Shown here: positions 2,380 through 13,521 of the stretch, piece by piece | Layout of the letters: each line of letters starts with the position of its first letter | Position numbering within the stretch: the stretch's first letter is position 1 | From: a virus | Lineage: Duplodnaviria > Heunggongvirae > Uroviricota > Caudoviricetes | Direction: 5' to 3' (one strand) | DNA length: 13,710 bases | Virus record (IMG/VR): IMGVR_UViG_2693429700_000003 | Span: 1-13,710 of that record | Notes under the pieces: generated by a model | Told to the model about the DNA's origin: nothing | Database searches by the model: none | Seen by the model: only the letters and a program-made list of their open reading frames with translations | Position numbers and translations under genes: made by a program

Positions 2380-2787
2380 TTACTGATGTTTGTTACGTTT
2401 GCGAGCTTCTAGTAGCTCGGTGAATAGGCGATTAAAATTCTCAACGCGGGCACGGAGTTCGCTGATTTGTGCTTGCTGCTCTGATTTTGGAAGTGCGCGA
2501 TACAATCGCAACATCTCCAACTCATCTTCCGATAAGTCTAAGGCGCTGTTGAGTGCAACTGGTGGATCTGGTGTTTTATCCTCGTCACCAAACAGTATCC
2601 AAGTTGGTGAACATTGCAATACCTCAGCCAGGCGATGCAAATTTTGCCCACGCGGGGCTGTATGGTCGCTTTCCCATAGTGAAATTGATGAGCCAGATAC
2701 GCCAGCGGCTTTGCTTAAATCGTTTTGACTTAAACCAACCTGTTTGCGTCTTTCTCTAATTCGTTGACCTAAAGTTTTCTCGTTCAT
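2380..2787 (-). CDS. dicA: DicA-type HTH (Xre/cI-like) prophage repressor, 135 aa
   Basis: Track ORF; N-terminal HTH (LSQNDLSKAAGVSGSSISLWE); motif VLQCSPTWILFGDEDK matches my recollection of E. coli DicA; divergent from a cro-like gene with operators between them. Confidence 0.8.
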   Translation of the reverse strand: MNEKTLGQRIRERRKQVGLSQNDLSKAAGVSGSSISLWESDHTAPRGQNLHRLAEVLQCSPTWILFGDEDKTPDPPVALNSALDLSEDELEMLRLYRALPKSEQQAQISELRARVENFNRLFTELLEARKRNKHQ

Positions 2788-2864
2788 ATTTAGATATCTT
2801 AATAACCCTTGACTTGAGATTCCTTGAGTGATTACTATTGAGAAAACTCAATTTTGGAGGGGTG
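2788..2864. promoter_or_regulatory. Divergent immunity-switch region: rightward promoter (-35 TTGACT 2809-2814, -10 ATTACT/TACTAT 2831-2838) and operator half-sites TTGAG/CTCAA, including the palindrome TTGAGAAAACTCAA (2839-2852)
   Basis: Direct inspection; the palindrome sits between the -10 and the cro RBS GGAGG (2855-2859). Confidence 0.55.
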
Positions 2865-3092
2865 ATGTTTAAATCAGACGTAATTAATTTTTATGGGACG
2901 AAAGCCAAAGTAGCGAAAGCTGCTGGTGTTGATCCATCTGCTGTTTCTCAATGGGGGGAGCTGGTTCCTGAAGGTCGCGCGATGCGCCTGCAAGAGGCAT
3001 CCGGCGGGGAACTTCAGTACGACCCCAAAGTTTATGACGAATATCGTAAGGCAAAGCGGGCGGGGCGGTTGAACAATGAAAATCACCCCTGA
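2865..3092 (+). CDS. dicC: Cro-like HTH regulator, 75 aa (DicC-type)
   Basis: ATG 2865 with GGAGG 5 nt upstream (track ORF 2838..3092 begins at an upstream TTG); divergent from the repressor; C-terminal PEGRAMRLQEASGGELQYDP fits the DicC/Cro family as I recall it. Confidence 0.7.
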   Translation: MFKSDVINFYGTKAKVAKAAGVDPSAVSQWGELVPEGRAMRLQEASGGELQYDPKVYDEYRKAKRAGRLNNENHP

Positions 3093-3627
3093 ACAGGTTT
3101 GTGAGGCTCTGGATGCCTGGGTGTGCCGACCAGGAATGACACAGGAGCAGGCGACGATATTAATCACGGAAGCATTCTGGGCTCTGAAAGAACGCCCGAA
3201 CATCGATGTTCAACGCGTCACGTTTAATGATGGCGAGGTTGATCAACGGGCGCTGGGCGTTAACCGGGTGAAGATATTCGAACGCTGGAAAGCTATCGAC
3301 ACCAGGGATAAGCGGAAAAAATTCACGGCGCTGATTCCGGCAATTATGGAGGCTATCCGAATTAGTGATTTCAGGTTGTATCGTGAGATCAGTGATGGAA
3401 AAAGCATTACGTACATGATCGCCGGATTAAACAAAGAATATGGCGATGTGGTGGAGTCCGGGCTGCTTTTTGCGGATCCAGCTGTTGTGGAACGTGAGAC
3501 TGACGAGCTTATAGAAAAAGCTATTGCTTTCAAGCATGCGTATCGTCAGCAATATCAATATTACTTTGCAGATAAACAAATGTCTGCCAGGGGTTCGTAT
3601 GAGTATCGATGCACTACGATGGGCTAA
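3076..3627 (+). CDS. Hypothetical early protein, 183 aa, in the CII position (possibly a YdaT-like CII analogue; function unverified)
   Basis: Track ORF; start overlaps the cro-like stop and end overlaps the O-like start, so it is in the rightward early operon. Confidence 0.6.
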   Translation: MKITPEQVCEALDAWVCRPGMTQEQATILITEAFWALKERPNIDVQRVTFNDGEVDQRALGVNRVKIFERWKAIDTRDKRKKFTALIPAIMEAIRISDFRLYREISDGKSITYMIAGLNKEYGDVVESGLLFADPAVVERETDELIEKAIAFKHAYRQQYQYYFADKQMSARGSYEYRCTTMG

Positions 3628-4639
3628 AAAGGTGAAAACCGGCAGTTCATCCAGTAAGTCTGTATTGACCTGGCTTGCTGATATGTGCGGTGCCGATTTG
3701 TGTGCATACCCGTCTGTATCTGCACTGGCAGAAGTAACGGAACTAAACAAAAAGACTGTGCAGGACAGCTTACGACACCTGATGGAGATTGGGTTAATTG
3801 TTGATACCGGTGAGAGAAAAGGCAGAACAAAGCAAATTGTGGTGTACCGACTTATCGGTGTAGAAGAAAGTGTTGCCGAGCCTGAATACACCCAAAAACG
3901 GGAGTCTTTAAAGGTGGGTAAAATTGGCGCTGTTAATAAAAACAGTACCGAAAATGGTTATGTTTCAGCACAAAACAGACCCAAAAACGGAACTCTTAGC
4001 TGCATGGAAAATAACCAAAGACACCCAAATTTTCCATCAAAGACACCCAAAAACGGATCACGGAACCCAAAGGAACCCAAAGATCTAAACCCCACACATA
4101 ACGCACGCGAGAGTGCTCCGACCAGTGAGCAGGAAGTTTTGTCGTTACAGGCAGCACCCCTTGTATTCCTGTATGGCCTGAGCGAACCCATCGGAAAATT
4201 TCCGATGACCGATAGCTGGTATCCGTCACGGGATTTTCGACGACGGGCTGCGTTGTGGGGGATGGCTTTGCCGGAGACAGAATTTACACCTGCTGAACTT
4301 GCCGCCTTCCGGGACTACTGGGCAGCGGAGGGGAAAGTGTTTACGCAGATTCAGTGGGAGCAGAAATTCGCCCGTCACGTAAATCACGTCAGGGCGCAGG
4401 TTAAACCAGTCAGCAAGGGGGTAAACCATGCAGCAGCACCAGGTGGCACCGCATCACGGGCAGTTCAGGAAATTCGGGCAGCACGTGAGCAGTGGGAACG
4501 TGAAAACGGATTTATCAGCGACGGAAACGGTCTGGAAGCTGTGGGAACTCATGGGGGAGGTTTATTCGAACCGCTGGACCCAGAAGAACGGGGCCGCACC
4601 TTCGAAGCTCTGGATTGCACAGATTGGCGCGATGACTGA
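3599..4639 (+). CDS. Replication initiator (lambda O-like role): N-terminal DNA-binding region, iteron-bearing linker, DnaT-like C-terminal segment; 346 aa as an ORF, but the true C-terminus may be earlier
   Basis: ATG 3599 (internal start of track ORF 3524..4639); N-terminal MSIDALRWAKKV...SVLTWLADMCG; origin-like iterons inside the coding region; followed by a P-like gene; the last ~70 codons are low-complexity and overlap the P-like frame. Confidence 0.65.
   Translation: MSIDALRWAKKVKTGSSSSKSVLTWLADMCGADLCAYPSVSALAEVTELNKKTVQDSLRHLMEIGLIVDTGERKGRTKQIVVYRLIGVEESVAEPEYTQKRESLKVGKIGAVNKNSTENGYVSAQNRPKNGTLSCMENNQRHPNFPSKTPKNGSRNPKEPKDLNPTHNARESAPTSEQEVLSLQAAPLVFLYGLSEPIGKFPMTDSWYPSRDFRRRAALWGMALPETEFTPAELAAFRDYWAAEGKVFTQIQWEQKFARHVNHVRAQVKPVSKGVNHAAAPGGTASRAVQEIRAAREQWERENGFISDGNGLEAVGTHGGGLFEPLDPEERGRTFEALDCTDWRDD
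3888..4085. repeat. Iteron cluster / putative phage origin of replication inside the initiator gene
   Basis: Repeated (A)GACACCCAAAAACGG-type units at 3888-3902, 3977-3990, 4018-4030 (variant), 4041-4056, plus two short AACCCAAAG copies at 4064-4082; in lambdoid phages the ori lies within the O linker region. Confidence 0.6.
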
Positions 4640-5093
4640 GCAGCAAATCCGACAGGTCTGCCGCCAGTGCATGGACCGCTGCCGGGCGGGTGAAACATGG
4701 CCTCCGGACCTGGCTGAGTTTGTGGCACTGATTTCGGAAAGCGGAGCCAATCCATTCGGTCTGACGGTGGATGCTGTGATGGAGGAGTACCGCCGCTGGC
4801 GCAATGAGTCCTGGCGATATGACGGAAGTGATAAGTACCCGTGGTCTCAGCCTGTGCTGTATCACATTTGCCTCGAGATGCGTTCAAAGGGGATTGAGCG
4901 CCAGATGACCGAAGGGGAATTAAAACGGCTTGCAGAACGGCAGCTGGCGAAATGGGCAAAGCATGTTAGTAACGGCCTGAGCGTTCCGCCAGTCCGGCGA
5001 CAACTGGCGGCACCCAAACGCCCGTCGGGGCCAACGCCAATTGAGTTGCTGAAACAGGAATATGAACGCCGGAAAGCGGCTGGGTTTGTTTGA
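4428..5093 (+). CDS. Lambda P-like replication protein (helicase loader), 221 aa; alternative starts at 4551 or 4632
   Basis: Track ORF; GGGGG 7 nt upstream of ATG 4428; by-eye similarity to lambda P (YPWSQPVLYHICLEMR vs YPWKSNAHYWLVTNLY; ELKRLAERQL vs AELRRKAADEL); no Walker A motif, so not DnaC-like. Confidence 0.65.
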   Translation: MQQHQVAPHHGQFRKFGQHVSSGNVKTDLSATETVWKLWELMGEVYSNRWTQKNGAAPSKLWIAQIGAMTEQQIRQVCRQCMDRCRAGETWPPDLAEFVALISESGANPFGLTVDAVMEEYRRWRNESWRYDGSDKYPWSQPVLYHICLEMRSKGIERQMTEGELKRLAERQLAKWAKHVSNGLSVPPVRRQLAAPKRPSGPTPIELLKQEYERRKAAGFV

Positions 5094-5125: not shown

Positions 5126-5887
5126 ATGGAGACTGTTTTTGACGCACTGAAAGCGATGGGAAAAGCCACGTCGGTAGAACTGGCTGCGCGACTTGATATC
5201 AGTCGTGAAGAAGTGCTGAACGAACTATGGGAACTGAAAAAGGCTGGTTTCGTTGATAAAAGCGCGTACACCTGGCGTGTGGCTTATAACAACGTTCAGC
5301 GGGAACAGCCAGCGTCGGCAGAACTGTCGGAAGAAACCACCACGGCAACAGTCGCTAAAATTTCGGAGAGCGATTTAACTGCGACGATTGAACAACGTGG
5401 CCCACAAACGGCGGATGAACTGGCTACGTTTTTCGGCATCACATCACGCAAAGTGGCTTCAACGCTGGCAATGGCAATCAGTAAAGGTCGTCTGATTCGC
5501 GTTAATCAGAACGGTAAATTTCGTTACTGCATGCCGGGCGATAATTTACCAGCAGAGCCGAAAGCTGCATCGGTAGCGGAAACTGATGGTAAAGCCTTTC
5601 CTCAGCCAGCCGGTGTTGCGTTACCAGTACAGGAAGCTGCAACACAGGAAGATATTAAAACAGAAACTGTGGCGGACATTGTGCAGTCGTTGCCATCGTT
5701 TACCGAAACGCAAGCAGATGAGCTGATTTTTCCGTCCCTGCGCAGGGCAAACCTGGCGCTGCGCAGGGCGAAAAGTGATGTTCAGAAGTGGGAGCGAGTC
5801 TGCGCCGCGCTGCGGGAGCTGAACAAGCACCGGGATATTGTTCGACAGATTACTGATTCTTCCCGCCGTGTTGTATCGGAAAAGTGA
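5126..5887 (+). CDS. Hypothetical protein, 253 aa, with winged-helix-like segments at the N-terminus and mid-protein
   Basis: Track ORF; GGGAGG 7 nt upstream of ATG. Confidence 0.7.
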
Positions 5888-5902
5888 TTGCCGGAGGCGC
5901 TT

Positions 5903-6325
5903 ATGGCAAAAGTATTTACACAAGAAGAGCGGGAAAAAATTAAAGGGCAGGTTGTTGAACTAGTACGCCGGAGTGGGCGCGAGATGTTACGGCAACTGGA
6001 AGCCAAGACAGGTGCGACAAGATATCTGATGAGCGTTCTCGCCAGAGAGCTGGTTGCCAGTGGCGATGTATACAACTCTGGTTACGGGTTATTCCCGTCT
6101 GAACAGGCTCGTAAGGACTGGCAAAATGCCCGCAAAAAACTATCTAGGGCAAAGGTGAAGAAACCATCTGTGGTTGATCCGGATCTTATCTGGTCATTAC
6201 CAGACGGAGAAATACGCCGCTACGACAGGCGTCTGAACATAATCTGTAGCGAGTGCCGGAAGAGCGAAGCTATGCAGCGTGTACTGGCTTTCTATCAGGG
6301 TAATTTTCAGAAGGTGCTGTTGTGA
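5903..6325 (+). CDS. Hypothetical protein, 141 aa
   Basis: ATG 5903 with GGAGG 5 nt upstream (track ORF 5888..6325 begins at an upstream TTG). Confidence 0.65.
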   Translation: MAKVFTQEEREKIKGQVVELVRRSGREMLRQLEAKTGATRYLMSVLARELVASGDVYNSGYGLFPSEQARKDWQNARKKLSRAKVKKPSVVDPDLIWSLPDGEIRRYDRRLNIICSECRKSEAMQRVLAFYQGNFQKVLL

Positions 6326-6430
6326 GCCAAATTAACAATCGGAACTTCGTGAAGAGAAAGCATAATCCAAATCTGAATAATTAAGTTCAGCACTGTAAAT
6401 AAAATTTAATCCTTAACTGGAGGTATATTT

Positions 6431-6643
6431 ATGTTAAATACACAGAAAGCCATTAATGCGGAAAAATATAACGAGTGGGCAAGAAAATTCTCTGAGCAGA
6501 TTTTTAAAATTACTGGCGATGAGAATGTGGCAAAAAATGAATTAGAACCGTGGACACCTGAAGGAAACGCACCAAATTATTGCTGGTGGGAGGTTGATCC
6601 GGTTGATGCTGCAAATGAAGCCATGAGTTACCACAACGATTAA
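6431..6643 (+). CDS. Hypothetical small protein, 70 aa, in an AT-rich moron
   Basis: Track ORF; TGGAGG 7 nt upstream of ATG; marked drop in GC relative to flanks. Confidence 0.6.
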   Translation: MLNTQKAINAEKYNEWARKFSEQIFKITGDENVAKNELEPWTPEGNAPNYCWWEVDPVDAANEAMSYHND

Positions 6644-12112: not shown

Positions 12113-13162
12113 ATGGCTAATACTGTAAAAATATCCAGTTGTGAGTTAATCAACGCTGATTGCCTGGAATTTATCCAGACCTTACCGGAAAATTCTGTCG
12201 ATCTGATAGTCACAGACCCGCCATACTTTAAAGTGAAGCCCGAGGGCTGGGATAACCAGTGGGAGGGCGACGATGATTACCTGAAATGGCTGGACCAGTG
12301 TCTGGCGCAGTTCTGGCGGGTACTGAAGCCTACCGGAAGTCTTTACCTGTTCTGTGGTCATCGCCTGGCATCTGACACCGAAATCATGATGCGTGAGCGC
12401 TTTAATGTGCTGAACCACATTATCTGGGCGAAGCCGTCCGGACGCTGGAACGGGTGCAATAAGGAAAGTCTGCGGGCGTATTTTCCGGCAACAGAGCGCA
12501 TTCTGTTTGCAGAACATTATCAGGGACCGTATCGCCCGAAAGATGATGGCTATGTGGAGCAGGGGCGCGAGCTAAAACAGCACGTCATGGCCCCGCTGAT
12601 TTCTTACTTTCGTGATGCGCGTAAATCACTGGGAATAACGTCAAAACAGATAGCGGAAGCCACCGGAAAGAAAAACATGGCTTCGCACTGGTTTGGTGCC
12701 AGTCAGTGGCAGTTACCGAACGAGGGTGATTACAATAAATTGCAGGCGTTGTTTGCGCGTGTTGCGGCAGAAAAACATCAGCGCGGGGAACTGGAAAAGC
12801 CACACCACCAGCTGGTCAGCACATACAGTGAGCTGAACCGGCAGTATACGGAACTGCTGAGTGAATATAAAAATTTGCGGCGGTATTTCGGTGTGACGGC
12901 GCAGGTTCCGTACACCGATGTCTGGACGCATAAACCGGTGCAGTACTATCCAGGGAAACATCCGTGCGAAAAACCGGCAGAAATGCTGCAGCAGATAATC
13001 AACGCGAGCAGTCGTCCGGGAGACCTGGTTGCAGATTTTTTTATGGGTTCAGGTTCAACGGTAAAAGCGGCGATGGCACTGGGGCGTTGTGCGATTGGTG
13101 TTGAGCTGGAGACCGGACGTTTTGAACAGACAGTCAGGGAAGTTCAGGATTTAATCGTTTGA
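12113..13162 (+). CDS. DNA methyltransferase, beta class (N6-adenine or N4-cytosine), 349 aa; no partner restriction endonuclease in the window
   Basis: Track ORF; motif IV TDPPYF near the N-terminus and motif I FFMGSGST near the C-terminus (beta-class order). Confidence 0.8.
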   Translation: MANTVKISSCELINADCLEFIQTLPENSVDLIVTDPPYFKVKPEGWDNQWEGDDDYLKWLDQCLAQFWRVLKPTGSLYLFCGHRLASDTEIMMRERFNVLNHIIWAKPSGRWNGCNKESLRAYFPATERILFAEHYQGPYRPKDDGYVEQGRELKQHVMAPLISYFRDARKSLGITSKQIAEATGKKNMASHWFGASQWQLPNEGDYNKLQALFARVAAEKHQRGELEKPHHQLVSTYSELNRQYTELLSEYKNLRRYFGVTAQVPYTDVWTHKPVQYYPGKHPCEKPAEMLQQIINASSRPGDLVADFFMGSGSTVKAAMALGRCAIGVELETGRFEQTVREVQDLIV

Positions 13163-13211: not shown

Positions 13212-13287
13212 GGCCCTTTAGCTCAGTGGTGAGAGCGAGCGACTCATAATCGCCAGGTCGCTGGTTCAAATCCAGCAAGGGCCACCA
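13212..13287 (+). tRNA. tRNA with CAU anticodon, ileX/ileZ-like (tRNA-Ile2 type read after lysidine modification; Met not excluded)
   Basis: Manual cloverleaf: acceptor GGCCCTT/AAGGGCC, D-arm TAGCTCAGTGGTGAGAGC, anticodon loop CTCATAA, T-loop GGTTCAAATCC, 3' ACCA; close to my recollection of E. coli ileX. Confidence 0.8.
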
Positions 13288-13288
13288 A

Positions 13289-13365
13289 CCGCCACTAGCT
13301 CATCAGGAAAGAGCGTCAACCCTTTAAGTTGAGTGTGCGAGGTTCGAGTCCCCGGTGGCGGTCCA
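13289..13365 (+). tRNA. tRNA of uncertain identity: anticodon loop CCUUUAA (UUU at positions 34-36, Lys-like, but with non-canonical C33)
   Basis: Manual cloverleaf: acceptor CCGCCAC/GTGGCGG (perfect 7 bp), D-stem GCTC/GAGC, anticodon stem TCAAC/GTTGA, T-arm with TTCGAGT loop and one mismatch, 3' TCCA; starts 1 nt after the preceding tRNA. Confidence 0.55.
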
Positions 13366-13367
13366 GT

Positions 13368-13443
<76 letters not shown>

Positions 13444-13446
13444 TAT

Positions 13447-13521
<75 letters not shown>

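Follow-up and report, generated by a model that had tools for sequence, protein, structure and literature searches.

A probable iteron origin of replication within the initiator gene of a lambdoid prophage

The principle of a replication origin that lies within the gene of its own initiator is already known, having been established decades ago in lambda and P22. The 'replisome organizer' genes of SPP1 (G38P/oriL) and of the lactococcal phages Tuc2009 and TP901-1 also contain their own binding repeats, although the protein families and hosts of these Gram-positive origins differ from those at the locus described here. In iteron plasmids, the iterons are usually regular 17–22-bp units placed about two helical turns apart and accompanied by A+T-rich regions and DnaA/IHF boxes. 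Lambda ori is made up of iterons and an AT-rich tract located centrally in O, and the Stx phages 933W and P27 have six iterons (PMC7466680). On Paracoccus plasmids, Rep proteins of the HTH_36 type have been described together with predicted iteron-like repeats (PMC3832669). For the Rac prophage, an active origin, oriJ, and oriJ plasmids have been reported (PMC3945230; reference list of PMC11014345).

In Stx phages, the dosage of toxin genes is set by prophage replication. Several 'non-lambdoid' Stx-phage replication types have been listed with related HTH_36-type proteins, their origin being undescribed, and the 'Eru' Stx-phage papers note HTH_36 proteins and neither iterons nor an origin. In the literature searched we found no binding or replication data, iterons or origin for the initiator family considered here, and no origin mapping data for HTH_36/DnaT-like phage initiators, PPompW or oriJ. 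Here we analyse a 13.7-kb stretch of phage DNA (the window) containing a repeat array that we regard as a probable iteron origin of known arrangement and for which origin activity is predicted. This candidate array of 200 bp makes prophage replication, replicon specificity and incompatibility accessible to experiment.

The initiator gene and its repeat array

The gene order at the locus is lambda-like. A cI-like gene (2380–2787, − strand) is followed by a pR-like sigma-70 promoter identified by consensus scan (TTGACT-18-TACTAT; 2809–2838, + strand), the P22-Cro-like gene that this promoter precedes (2838–3092), a YdaT-like gene, the replication initiator gene (3599–4639, + strand) and a lambda-P-like helicase loader gene (4632–5093, + strand), the start of which overlaps the initiator stop codon (ATGACTGA). 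The loader matches Pfam Phage_lambda_P (PF06992; 1e-16) and the PHROG P-like helicase loader family (8.7e-50). As in lambda, the P-type loader gene is immediately downstream of the initiator gene, and the module lies downstream of cI, pR and cro and would be transcribed from the pR-like promoter past cro. The stretch from this promoter to the initiator gene shows no terminator-like site, and a promoter and terminator scan found neither element inside the initiator gene. Rightward transcription from the pR-like promoter would cross the array.

The initiator is a protein of 346 aa with a winged-helix N-domain, a disordered linker and a DnaT-like C-domain. It matches Pfam DnaT (PF17948; 6.5e-17) and the PHROG 'replication initiation protein' family (1.7e-90), with weak PHROG matches to DnaD-like and replisome-organizer families. 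Its score against Pfam HTH_36 (PF13730) is 20.8 bits, for a gathering cut-off of 25, and most homologues at 35–67% identity have a precomputed PF13730 match. AlphaFold2 models the N-domain (aa 1–90; 3599–3868, + strand) at pLDDT 91–98 with a helix-helix-helix-helix-strand-strand topology, and Foldseek matches it to winged-helix regulators and, weakly, to plasmid RepA_N-type Rep N-domains (4pql, 5kbj); this DNA-binding domain is the presumed iteron reader. The linker (aa 91–200), within which the array is located, is modelled at pLDDT 42–59 and predicted to be disordered. The C-domain (aa 197–267; 4187–4399, + strand) is confidently modelled and matches the C-terminal ssDNA-binding domain of DnaT both in sequence (PDB 6aep, 1.6e-19; PF17948) and in predicted fold (Foldseek matches to 4ou6, a DnaT–dT10 complex, and 6aeq, with TM 0.89–0.91 and 54–58% identity), and is predicted to bind ssDNA.

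The array contains three exact copies of a 12-mer, ACCCAAAAACGG, at 3890, 3979 and 4045, all on the + strand, and no further site within one mismatch of it occurs elsewhere in the window. The heptamer ACCCAAA is found seven times in the window, with six of the seven falling inside 192 bp (3890–4081) on the + strand, a degree of clustering that has a chance probability of about 7e-10 when calculated analytically and that was reached in none of 2,000,000 simulations. A direct-repeat search of the whole window returned the array as the sole family with at least three copies. The output of Tandem Repeats Finder consisted solely of the terminal GGAACCCAAA ×2 at 4062–4082, the rest of the array being missed because its units are separated by other sequence and not in tandem. 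Alignment with relatives extended the unit to about 24 nt, AAnAnnCCCAAAAACGGnAnnnTT, and exposed degenerate copies at 3916 (GGGTAAAATTGG) and 3946 (TACCGAAAATGG) as well as a variant copy at 4023 (ACCCAAATTTTCC).

All units are on the + strand. Iteron unit 1 (AATACACCCAAAAACGGGAGTCTT; 3885–3908) has its core at 3890–3901, which is read TQKR in frame 0, and its offset in the gene (291) is identical in all enterobacterial relatives. Degenerate unit 2 (AAGGTGGGTAAAATTGGCGCTGTT; 3911–3934, core 3916–3927) aligns with full CCCAAAAACGGnAnTGTT units in the relatives, and degenerate unit 3 (AACAGTACCGAAAATGGTTATGTT; 3941–3964, core 3946–3957), read TENG, emerged from both the repeat search and the alignment. 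Iteron unit 4 (AACAGACCCAAAAACGGAACTCTT; 3974–3997, core 3979–3990) is read PKNG in frame 2 and carries a CGG>CAG change in PPompW_132418. Variant unit 5 (AAGACACCCAAATTTTCCATCAAA; 4018–4041, core 4023–4035) is read HPNFP in frame 1; in relatives this site is an inverted AAAAACGG half-site (ACCGTTTTTCCC in the relatives L004, L005 and L007). Iteron unit 6 (AAGACACCCAAAAACGGATCACGG; 4040–4063, core 4045–4056) is the best conserved copy, and it is followed by two tandem half-copies (GGAACCCAAA ×2.1; 4062–4082) detected by Tandem Repeats Finder and the heptamer scan.

These searches confirm the array described in the initial annotation of this DNA, as an interspersed one with a unit of about 24 nt, and its count of four to six copies in about 200 bp was right or slightly low: when degenerate and half copies are included, about eight same-strand units occupy 3885–4082 (gene offsets 287–484). 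Start-to-start spacings are irregular (26, 30, 33, 44, 22, 20 and 10), and the sign of helical phasing (R = 0.81 at 11 bp for 7 sites) is no more than suggestive, because the period was picked afterwards and the relatives form two phase classes. There is no inverted full copy of the motif with up to two mismatches; only the variant site at 4023 resembles an inverted half-site, and does so in relatives.

Comparison with known origins

We think it likely that the array at 3885–4082 comprises the iterons for the initiator encoded by the same gene and constitutes the recognition part of the replication origin of a lambdoid prophage. Because what many bacteria conserve in this cluster is its DNA sequence and not the encoded protein, it is most likely the phage's replication origin; it is predicted to fire. 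In the mechanism that we propose, rightward transcription from the pR-like promoter would supply the cro-like, YdaT-like, initiator and P-like proteins, and the N-terminal winged helix, which we infer to be the binder of the array, would engage the same-oriented (A/T)CCCAAAAACGG(G)A units to form an O-some-like nucleoprotein complex. The DNA would then open in or beside the array, where the least stable stretch is 3905–3978, and the DnaT-like domain would hold single-stranded DNA and/or dock the P-like loader, leading to delivery of host DnaB. The top strand of the array is A-rich and T-poor. Placement of the array in the disordered linker would follow from this being the sole part of the gene that tolerates a DNA-dictated sequence.

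The initial annotation likened the arrangement to lambda ori within O, a reading that our comparisons support, and the parallel extends to position, orientation and motif shape. In both phages, direct repeats of the same orientation lie inside the initiator ORF, in the linker straight after the N-terminal DNA-binding domain. Within lambda O, the iterons lie at gene offsets 348, 368, 392 and 415 (span 348–432), occupy three frames and come directly after Phage_rep_O (aa 22–115); P22 ori is annotated inside gene 18 at offsets 352–496, with direct repeats (…TCGGTAAAAC…) after the N-domain; and the corresponding span here is 291–483. The motifs of lambda (ATCCCTCAAAACGAGGGA) and of this phage ((A/T)CCCAAAAACGGGA) share a CCC / A-tract / C / GGG layout. 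Unit number varies among relatives, L004, L005 and L007 having one extra unit, as it does between the Stx phages and lambda.

The designation of the initiator as 'O-like' holds for function and position but not for family membership. The protein has no PF04492 match at E ≤ 0.01, whereas lambda O scores 5.7e-36; BLASTP detects no similarity to lambda O or P22 gp18; and a profile–profile comparison using hhalign gives E = 6e-4 with a probability of 28%, a borderline result for remote homology. Because the initiator is not a detectable member of Phage_rep_O, transfer of the lambda mechanism to this locus is by analogy. Further differences from lambda are that the C-terminal half of the protein is a DnaT-like ssDNA-binding domain, that the short symmetric arms of the motif are 3–4 nt rather than 6, that spacing is an irregular 10–44 bp rather than 20–24 bp, and that the iterons are not followed by a 40-bp AT-rich tract. 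P22 differs in that gp18, which belongs to Phage_rep_O (6.9e-38), has a DnaB-type helicase as its partner instead of a P-like loader, and in the clear A+T-rich tract after its repeats.

The Rac proteins YdaU and YdaV resemble those encoded here: the two initiators have near-identical DnaT-like C-terminal halves, and YdaV of Rac-SA53 shares 99% identity with the P-like loader. However, the N-module of the Rac protein is DUF1376, the ACCCAAAAACGG motif is absent, and the linker contains short palindromes rather than a direct-repeat array. Iteron plasmids share with this locus a winged-helix initiator and same-oriented direct repeats, but their iterons are predicted upstream of rep rather than inside the gene, and the regular architecture of plasmid origins is absent here, as is any DnaA box.

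A lambda-like 40-bp AT-rich tract after the last iteron was sought in the window and is absent, and the sequence that follows the array (4057–4105) is 53% A+T; the earlier observation that no obvious AT-rich region follows the repeats was therefore correct. The least stable DNA of the gene is instead inside the array, at 3905–4033. This includes its most A+T-rich stretch (3905–3978, about 64% A+T), and the interval 3902–3978 (64% A+T) is made of degenerate iterons; GC is 0.33 at 3920–3979, with nearest-neighbour stability in the top 4–5% of the window. By its position only, 3905–3978 is a candidate unwinding region. In the family as a whole, A+T content is only slightly raised immediately after the arrays (mean excess about +6%), and some relatives have a 30-bp window of 67–90% A+T within 40 nt downstream of the array.

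The lack of a clear unwinding element adjoining the array could also be accounted for if the repeats were initiator-binding sites with a regulatory function and the true origin were at another site, for instance in A+T-rich intergenic DNA. The repeats might then act as a roadblock, autoregulate the expression of the initiator and the P-like protein, titrate the initiator or control copy number by a handcuffing-type mechanism. Intergenic DNA at 6357–6457 and 2755–2855 is indeed the least stable in the whole window, and the iterons of iteron plasmids serve control roles as well. We nevertheless judge this explanation improbable, since the window contains neither a second multi-copy repeat cluster nor a DnaA box (TTWTNCACA), the position of the array is that of the experimentally defined lambda ori and of P22 ori (annotated by similarity to lambda), and the array stays with the N-domain when modules are exchanged. 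A control role would, moreover, be compatible with an origin role.

Mosaicism and recurrence of the array

Megablast matches to the initiator gene begin at query position 481–485, which is the end of the array. Together with protein and DNA alignments, they place at 4076–4105 (+ strand) a conserved AAAGATCT that contains GATC and a mosaic junction (…LNPTHNA). Upstream of the junction the N-module and array are lineage-specific, and downstream of it the sequence is near-identical to Rac-SA53 and pPE4, in which the N-modules are unrelated and the motif is absent despite the near-identical C-terminal half. In Edwardsiella-type relatives it is the N-domain and iterons that are kept and the C-domain that is different. 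The motif tracks the N-domain in hosts from Escherichia to an uncultured gammaproteobacterium. These alignments show, at the level of sequence, that the N-domain and the array are co-inherited. Motif sharing is also associated with N-domain identity (Mantel p ≤ 5e-4, confounded by physical linkage), but we do not count this result as independent evidence because linkage alone would give the same co-variation.

Arrays recur at this place throughout the family. A 9-mer is present at least three times in nt 241–540 of 34 of the 47 homologous genes, compared with 0/46, 1/47 and 0/47 in control regions. Spacings of 17–18, 21–24, 33 and 44 are common across the family, those of 21–24 bp being the commonest. 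In 19 loci of about 5 kb each, all 46 occurrences of exact CCAAAAACGG are on the gene strand within the linker and none is outside it. At the corresponding position, distant members of the family carry repeats of quite another sequence. A multi-copy array within 300 nt downstream of the winged-helix domain, often in several frames, could serve as a rule for origin annotation, applying to 34 of 47 homologues.

A conserved junction at the array end would also be expected if the array marked a boundary between modules that is prone to recombination and so favours mosaic exchange, and a binder other than the initiator can be envisaged, either a host architectural protein or the neighbouring DUF1627 winged-helix protein (5126–5887), which has HTH-like domains. 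Either possibility appears quite unlikely. The motif follows the initiator N-domain across hosts and is missing from E. coli Rac-SA53 despite the same downstream genes; the differing repeats that distant members have at the same place are ill-suited to a conserved host factor; and recombination junctions need no six- to eightfold repetition.

If the array is read by the winged helix of its own initiator, as we favour, it is conceivable that winged helix and iteron-bearing disordered linker form a portable, self-contained origin-recognition cassette in which the sites dictate the linker sequence. As part of this tentative proposal, DnaT-like versions of the cassette might do without a classical A+T-rich element, their own ssDNA-binding domain capturing the A-rich, T-poor strand in or beside the array. 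Relatives of the cassette extend from Enterobacterales to Acinetobacter, Desulfovibrio and Actinomycetota, and it may have been joined by recombination to a variety of helicase-recruiting C-domains, among them DnaT-like and Phg_2220_C domains.

Selection on the repeats as DNA

The initial annotation had noted a matching PKNG pattern in the protein. Two copies of the repeat do encode PKNG, but copy 1 encodes TQKR, and the ACCCAAA copies in this gene are read in frames 0, 2, 1, 2, 1 and 2, which is to say in all three. The 12-mer ACCCAAAAACGG is translated as TQKR or PKNG here and as PKTG in the relative L038. The last iteron, CCCAAAAACGG, has 11 nt that are invariant in 10 of 10 enterobacterial relatives from eight genera, and is read PKNG in five of these genera (Escherichia, Kluyvera, Scandinavium, Enterobacter and Yersinia) and QKR in the other three (Edwardsiella, Plesiomonas and Serratia). 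In the same ten sequences, just 2.3% of third codon positions are invariant in the folded N-domain, and the longest invariant run is 5 nt in the N-domain versus 11 nt in the linker. Copies are in two or more frames in 23 of the 34 homologue arrays. These comparisons show purifying selection acting on the repeats at the level of DNA and not of the peptide.

The repeats are, accordingly, not explained by repetitive linker codons, an outcome that had been named as grounds for refuting the origin; this explanation fails because three frames are used, because the last copy is nucleotide-invariant across genera in differing frames and because arrays recur family-wide. A purely protein-level low-complexity or repeat linker, of which the DNA repeats would be a mere echo, has some appeal in that peptides of the PKNG, TENG and NGT type reappear in numerous homologues and 63 of 101 family repeat spacings are multiples of 3. 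It is nonetheless very unlikely in view of the frame usage and the contrast with the folded domain described above, and the linker is predicted to be disordered. Least probable of all is that the CCCAAAA/CCCAAAT runs are translational slippery sites or another RNA-level signal: C CCA AAA and C CCA AAT do match the X XXY YYZ heptamer pattern of −1 frameshift sites, but programmed frameshifting at the array was rejected on reading-frame grounds, most copies being out of the frame needed for slippage and stops closing the alternative frames (the sole overlapping ORF is 54 aa, 3924–4088), and the DNA motif reaches well past the heptamer.

As iterons for the initiator, the repeats illustrate clearly how two codes can overlap: the sequence of a disordered protein linker is shaped by DNA-binding sites, and the peptides TQKR, PKNG, TENG and PNFP arise as side products of those sites.

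Of 5,426 complete E. coli genomes, 908 carry the module, among them O157:H7, O145:H28, O26:H11 and O111:H8 strains. The only hints of initiator-dependent replication come from two small circular 'plasmid' database records that also carry it, NZ_CP148379.1 (8.46 kb) and NZ_CP148543.1; one of the two has a split initiator gene, and these records could be lambda-dv-like replicons or assembly artefacts.

The repeat array and the initiator gene

The initiator gene (3599-4639, + strand) encodes a protein of 346 aa and contains the array at gene offsets 287-484. Three exact copies of ACCCAAAAACGG lie at 3890, 3979 and 4045, with no further site at one mismatch or fewer in the 13.7-kb window, and six of the seven window copies of the heptamer ACCCAAA fall within 3890-4081 on the + strand, a clustering with a chance of about 7e-10. 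No other repeat family with at least three copies was found in the window. Alignment with relatives defines a full unit of about 24 nt (AAnAnnCCCAAAAACGGnAnnnTT). Two degenerate units (3916 and 3946), a variant unit (ACCCAAATTTTCC; 4018-4041, core at 4023) and two half-copies (4062-4082) also emerge from it. The array described in the initial annotation is thus confirmed and extended. All units have the same orientation, with spacings of 26, 30, 33, 44, 22, 20 and 10.

The variant unit lies 22 bp ahead of the last iteron at a conserved position (alignment A4, columns 195-215) and encodes a PFFP/PNFP peptide that is present even in Ralstonia-like and Methylobacter relatives; in Enterobacter and Scandinavium its site reads ACCGTTTTTCCC, an inverted AAAAACGG half-site. 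A natural variant of the 3979 iteron occurs in PPompW_132418 (L001) and its close relatives, whose module is otherwise about 99% identical: CGG becomes CAG (window 3988, L001 6391), changing PKNG to PKNR.

An AlphaFold2 model of the initiator, built from a 47-sequence alignment, comprises a winged helix at the N terminus, modelled with confidence (aa 1-90, pLDDT 91-98), a linker of low confidence (aa 91-200, pLDDT 42-59) and a confidently modelled C-domain. The array corresponds to aa 97-162, wholly within the predicted disordered linker. The C-domain matches the ssDNA-binding domain of DnaT (Pfam, 6.5e-17; PDB 6aep, 1.6e-19) and the DnaT-dT10 complex (Foldseek TM about 0.9); for the N-domain, the resemblance is to winged-helix DNA binders in general and, weakly, to plasmid Rep N-domains.

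The window shares about 99% identity with the E. coli lambdoid prophage PPompW (LC567822 and relatives). Upstream of the initiator gene are a cI/DicA-like repressor gene (2380-2787, minus strand), a pR-like promoter (2809-2838), a P22-Cro-like gene (2838-3092) and a YdaT-like gene (3076-3627); directly downstream, a lambda-P-like helicase loader gene (4632-5093) overlaps the initiator stop codon. This order, from the cI/DicA-like to the P-like gene, follows the classical arrangement of lambdoid immunity and replication genes. After the loader come two conserved genes, for a DUF1627 protein with HTH-like N-terminal domains (5126-5887) and a DUF977 protein (5888-6325). Four tRNA genes (Met-CAT, Lys-TTT, Thr-TGT and Gly-TCC) cluster at 13212-13521 at the right end of the window; the 349-aa ORF upstream of them (12113-13162) matches by position a 350-aa ORF of NZ_CP148543.1 annotated as a site-specific DNA-methyltransferase.

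Selection on the repeat units as DNA

Within the initiator gene, ACCCAAA occurs in reading frames 0, 2, 1, 2, 1 and 2, and the exact 12-mer is translated once as TQKR and twice as PKNG. For comparison, we fetched 51 loci encoding N-domain relatives. Every enterobacterial relative, together with the uncultured gammaproteobacterium L038, has 3-6 copies of (A/T)CCCAAAAACGG, which is translated as TQKR, PKNG or, in L038, PKTG, a usage that covers all three frames. When the DNA of 10 linkers from 8 genera was aligned, the last iteron, CCCAAAAACGG (window 4046-4056), did not vary at any position; it encodes PKNG in five genera (Escherichia, Kluyvera, Scandinavium, Enterobacter and Yersinia) and QKR in three (Edwardsiella, Plesiomonas and Serratia). 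In the same 10 sequences, invariance at third codon positions of the folded N-domain is limited to 2.3%, and no invariant run in N-domain coding sequence exceeds 5 nt, versus 11 nt at the last iteron. Exact CCAAAAACGG matches number 46 in 19 loci of about 5 kb; every one is on the gene strand within the linker, with none elsewhere in these loci. Frame usage, the invariant last iteron and the confinement of CCAAAAACGG to the linker together show that the array is under purifying selection as DNA. The peptide repeats are a by-product, and the array illustrates cleanly how a DNA code can take precedence over the sequence of a protein linker. The fixed orientation of the units is plausibly a coding compromise: K, N, Q, T and P, the residues encoded by the A-rich strand, are suited to a disordered linker, and the complement would give F, L and V.

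The pattern recurs across the family. A 9-mer is present at least three times in nt 241-540 of 34 of the 47 full-length homologues, compared with control regions upstream (0/46), in N-domain coding sequence (0/47) and at nt 601-900 (1/47). Copies occupy at least two frames in 23 of the 34 repeat-bearing homologues, and spacings cluster at 17-18, 21-24, 33 and 44 bp. Distant homologues have different repeats at the equivalent position, some with striking regularity (locus L047 has 6 x 18 bp, L048 has units of 21 bp, and the spacing is 22/44 bp in L041, L042 and L054). Motif sharing falls as the N-domain diverges, a trend that linkage on the same DNA would likewise yield. The repeat pattern is useful for annotation.

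Inheritance of the array with the DNA-binding domain

The C-terminal half of the initiator is almost identical, from …LNPTHNA onwards, in YdaU of the E. coli Rac-type prophage Rac-SA53 and in gp14 of the Actinobacillus phage pPE4, and the Rac-SA53 P-like protein is 99% identical to that of the window. The N-modules of both are unrelated to the window's (DUF1376 in Rac-SA53, a third, unclassified type in pPE4), and the ACCCAAAAACGG motif is absent from both. The mosaic junction (window ~4083) coincides with the end of the array. In Edwardsiella-type relatives, the N-domain and iterons are retained and the C-domain is a different one. Thus, the DNA-binding domain moves together with the array as a single unit, and the C-domain goes with the loader. 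In lambda O, labour is divided in the same way: iteron recognition lies with the N-terminal part, and contact with P lies with the C-terminal part.

The junction region (4076-4105) contains a conserved AAAGATCT (GATC) and the …LNPTHNA sequence, and the same DnaT-like/P-like module is joined to three unrelated N-modules (winged helix, DUF1376 and pPE4 type). Short repeat families with few copies, which could be chance, occur at the equivalent linker position in Rac-SA53 (L002 2422-2475; palindromes TGTTCAAACA / TGTTTGAACA) and pPE4 (L003 2311-2469; GCCTAAGGATAA twice plus GATAAGGC… copies).

Comparison with lambda and the proposed origin

Lambda has four annotated iterons at O-gene offsets 348, 368, 392 and 415, in three frames and immediately beyond the Phage_rep_O domain (aa 22-115), and an A+T-rich tract comes after them. 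In P22, the annotated ori occupies gene 18 offsets 352-496, against 287-484 for the array. The motifs are similar in shape (ATCCCTCAAAACGAGGGA in lambda, (A/T)CCCAAAAACGGGA here), and a CCC / A-tract / C / GGG layout is common to the lambda iterons (L055 1135-1219) and window 3885-4063. The N-domain aligns weakly with that of lambda O (hhalign, E = 6e-4, probability 28%), the alignment stopping just ahead of the iterons in both proteins. This alignment and the similar iteron layout are a hint that the two initiator types may share an ancient ancestor. Unit number varies among the window's relatives (loci L004, L005 and L007 have one extra unit), as iteron number does between Stx phages, with six, and lambda, with four (PMC7466680).

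Two defining features of the lambda type fail here. Neither Pfam nor BLASTP places the initiator in Phage_rep_O, and the iterons have no lambda-like A+T-rich tract after them: at 4057-4105 the A+T content is 53%, with strong strand asymmetry (45% A, 8% T). The parallel with the lambda ori-within-O arrangement drawn in the initial annotation holds for the location after the DNA-binding domain and for the use of multiple frames; its remark that no obvious AT-rich unwinding region follows the repeats was correct. The least stable DNA of the initiator gene, 3905-4033, is within the array and composed of degenerate units. The literature searched yielded no origin or iteron mapping for the HTH_36/DnaT-like initiator family: the Stx-phage 'Eru' papers only mention HTH_36 proteins, and for plasmid Reps of the HTH_36 type the predicted iterons lie upstream of rep (PMC3832669). 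Rac is reported to have an active oriJ (PMC3945230), for which no position relative to ydaU was found in the same literature.

Selection as DNA, recurrence across the family and co-inheritance with the N-domain support the original interpretation of the array as an origin embedded in the initiator gene. An embedded origin of known type, in an initiator family distinct from lambda O, is well supported; its variant traits are the DnaT-like C-domain and the lack of an obvious A+T-rich tract. We consider it likely that the winged helix binds the units, where it would form an O-some-like complex, that the duplex opens within or next to the array, perhaps aided by transcription from the pR-like promoter, and that the DnaT-like domain binds ssDNA and/or the P-like loader, which would bring DnaB. 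Of this picture, the analysis establishes the repeats, their selection as DNA, the domain architecture and the co-inheritance, whereas unit binding, origin firing, the site of opening and the part played by the C-domain are inferred.

The units could instead be initiator sites for control only, with the origin elsewhere, which we regard as improbable. Less probable again is that they are sites of another protein or, at the mosaic junction, a recombination boundary. Pure peptide repeats, which the initial annotation named as refuting its reading, are very unlikely, because repeated linker codons do not explain units that use multiple frames and include an iteron invariant as DNA across different translations, and a frameshift signal is the least credible reading of all. 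Compared with these alternatives, we favour the embedded origin.

The N-domain and array module (window 3599-4100) is present at 95% identity or more in 908 of 5,426 complete E. coli genomes, in up to 4 copies per genome, with major EHEC serotypes among the carriers. Two small circular 'plasmid' records from a single sequencing project, NZ_CP148379.1 (L057, 1-8461) and NZ_CP148543.1 (L059, 1-15643), contain the cI/cro/YdaT/initiator/P-like module without another replication gene. The initiator of the former (8.46 kb) is 99.4% identical to the window's, and a frameshift splits the initiator ORF of the latter (15.6 kb). These records could be lambda-dv-like mini-replicons or assembly artefacts; if they are mini-replicons, they would provide natural evidence of autonomous replication by the module.
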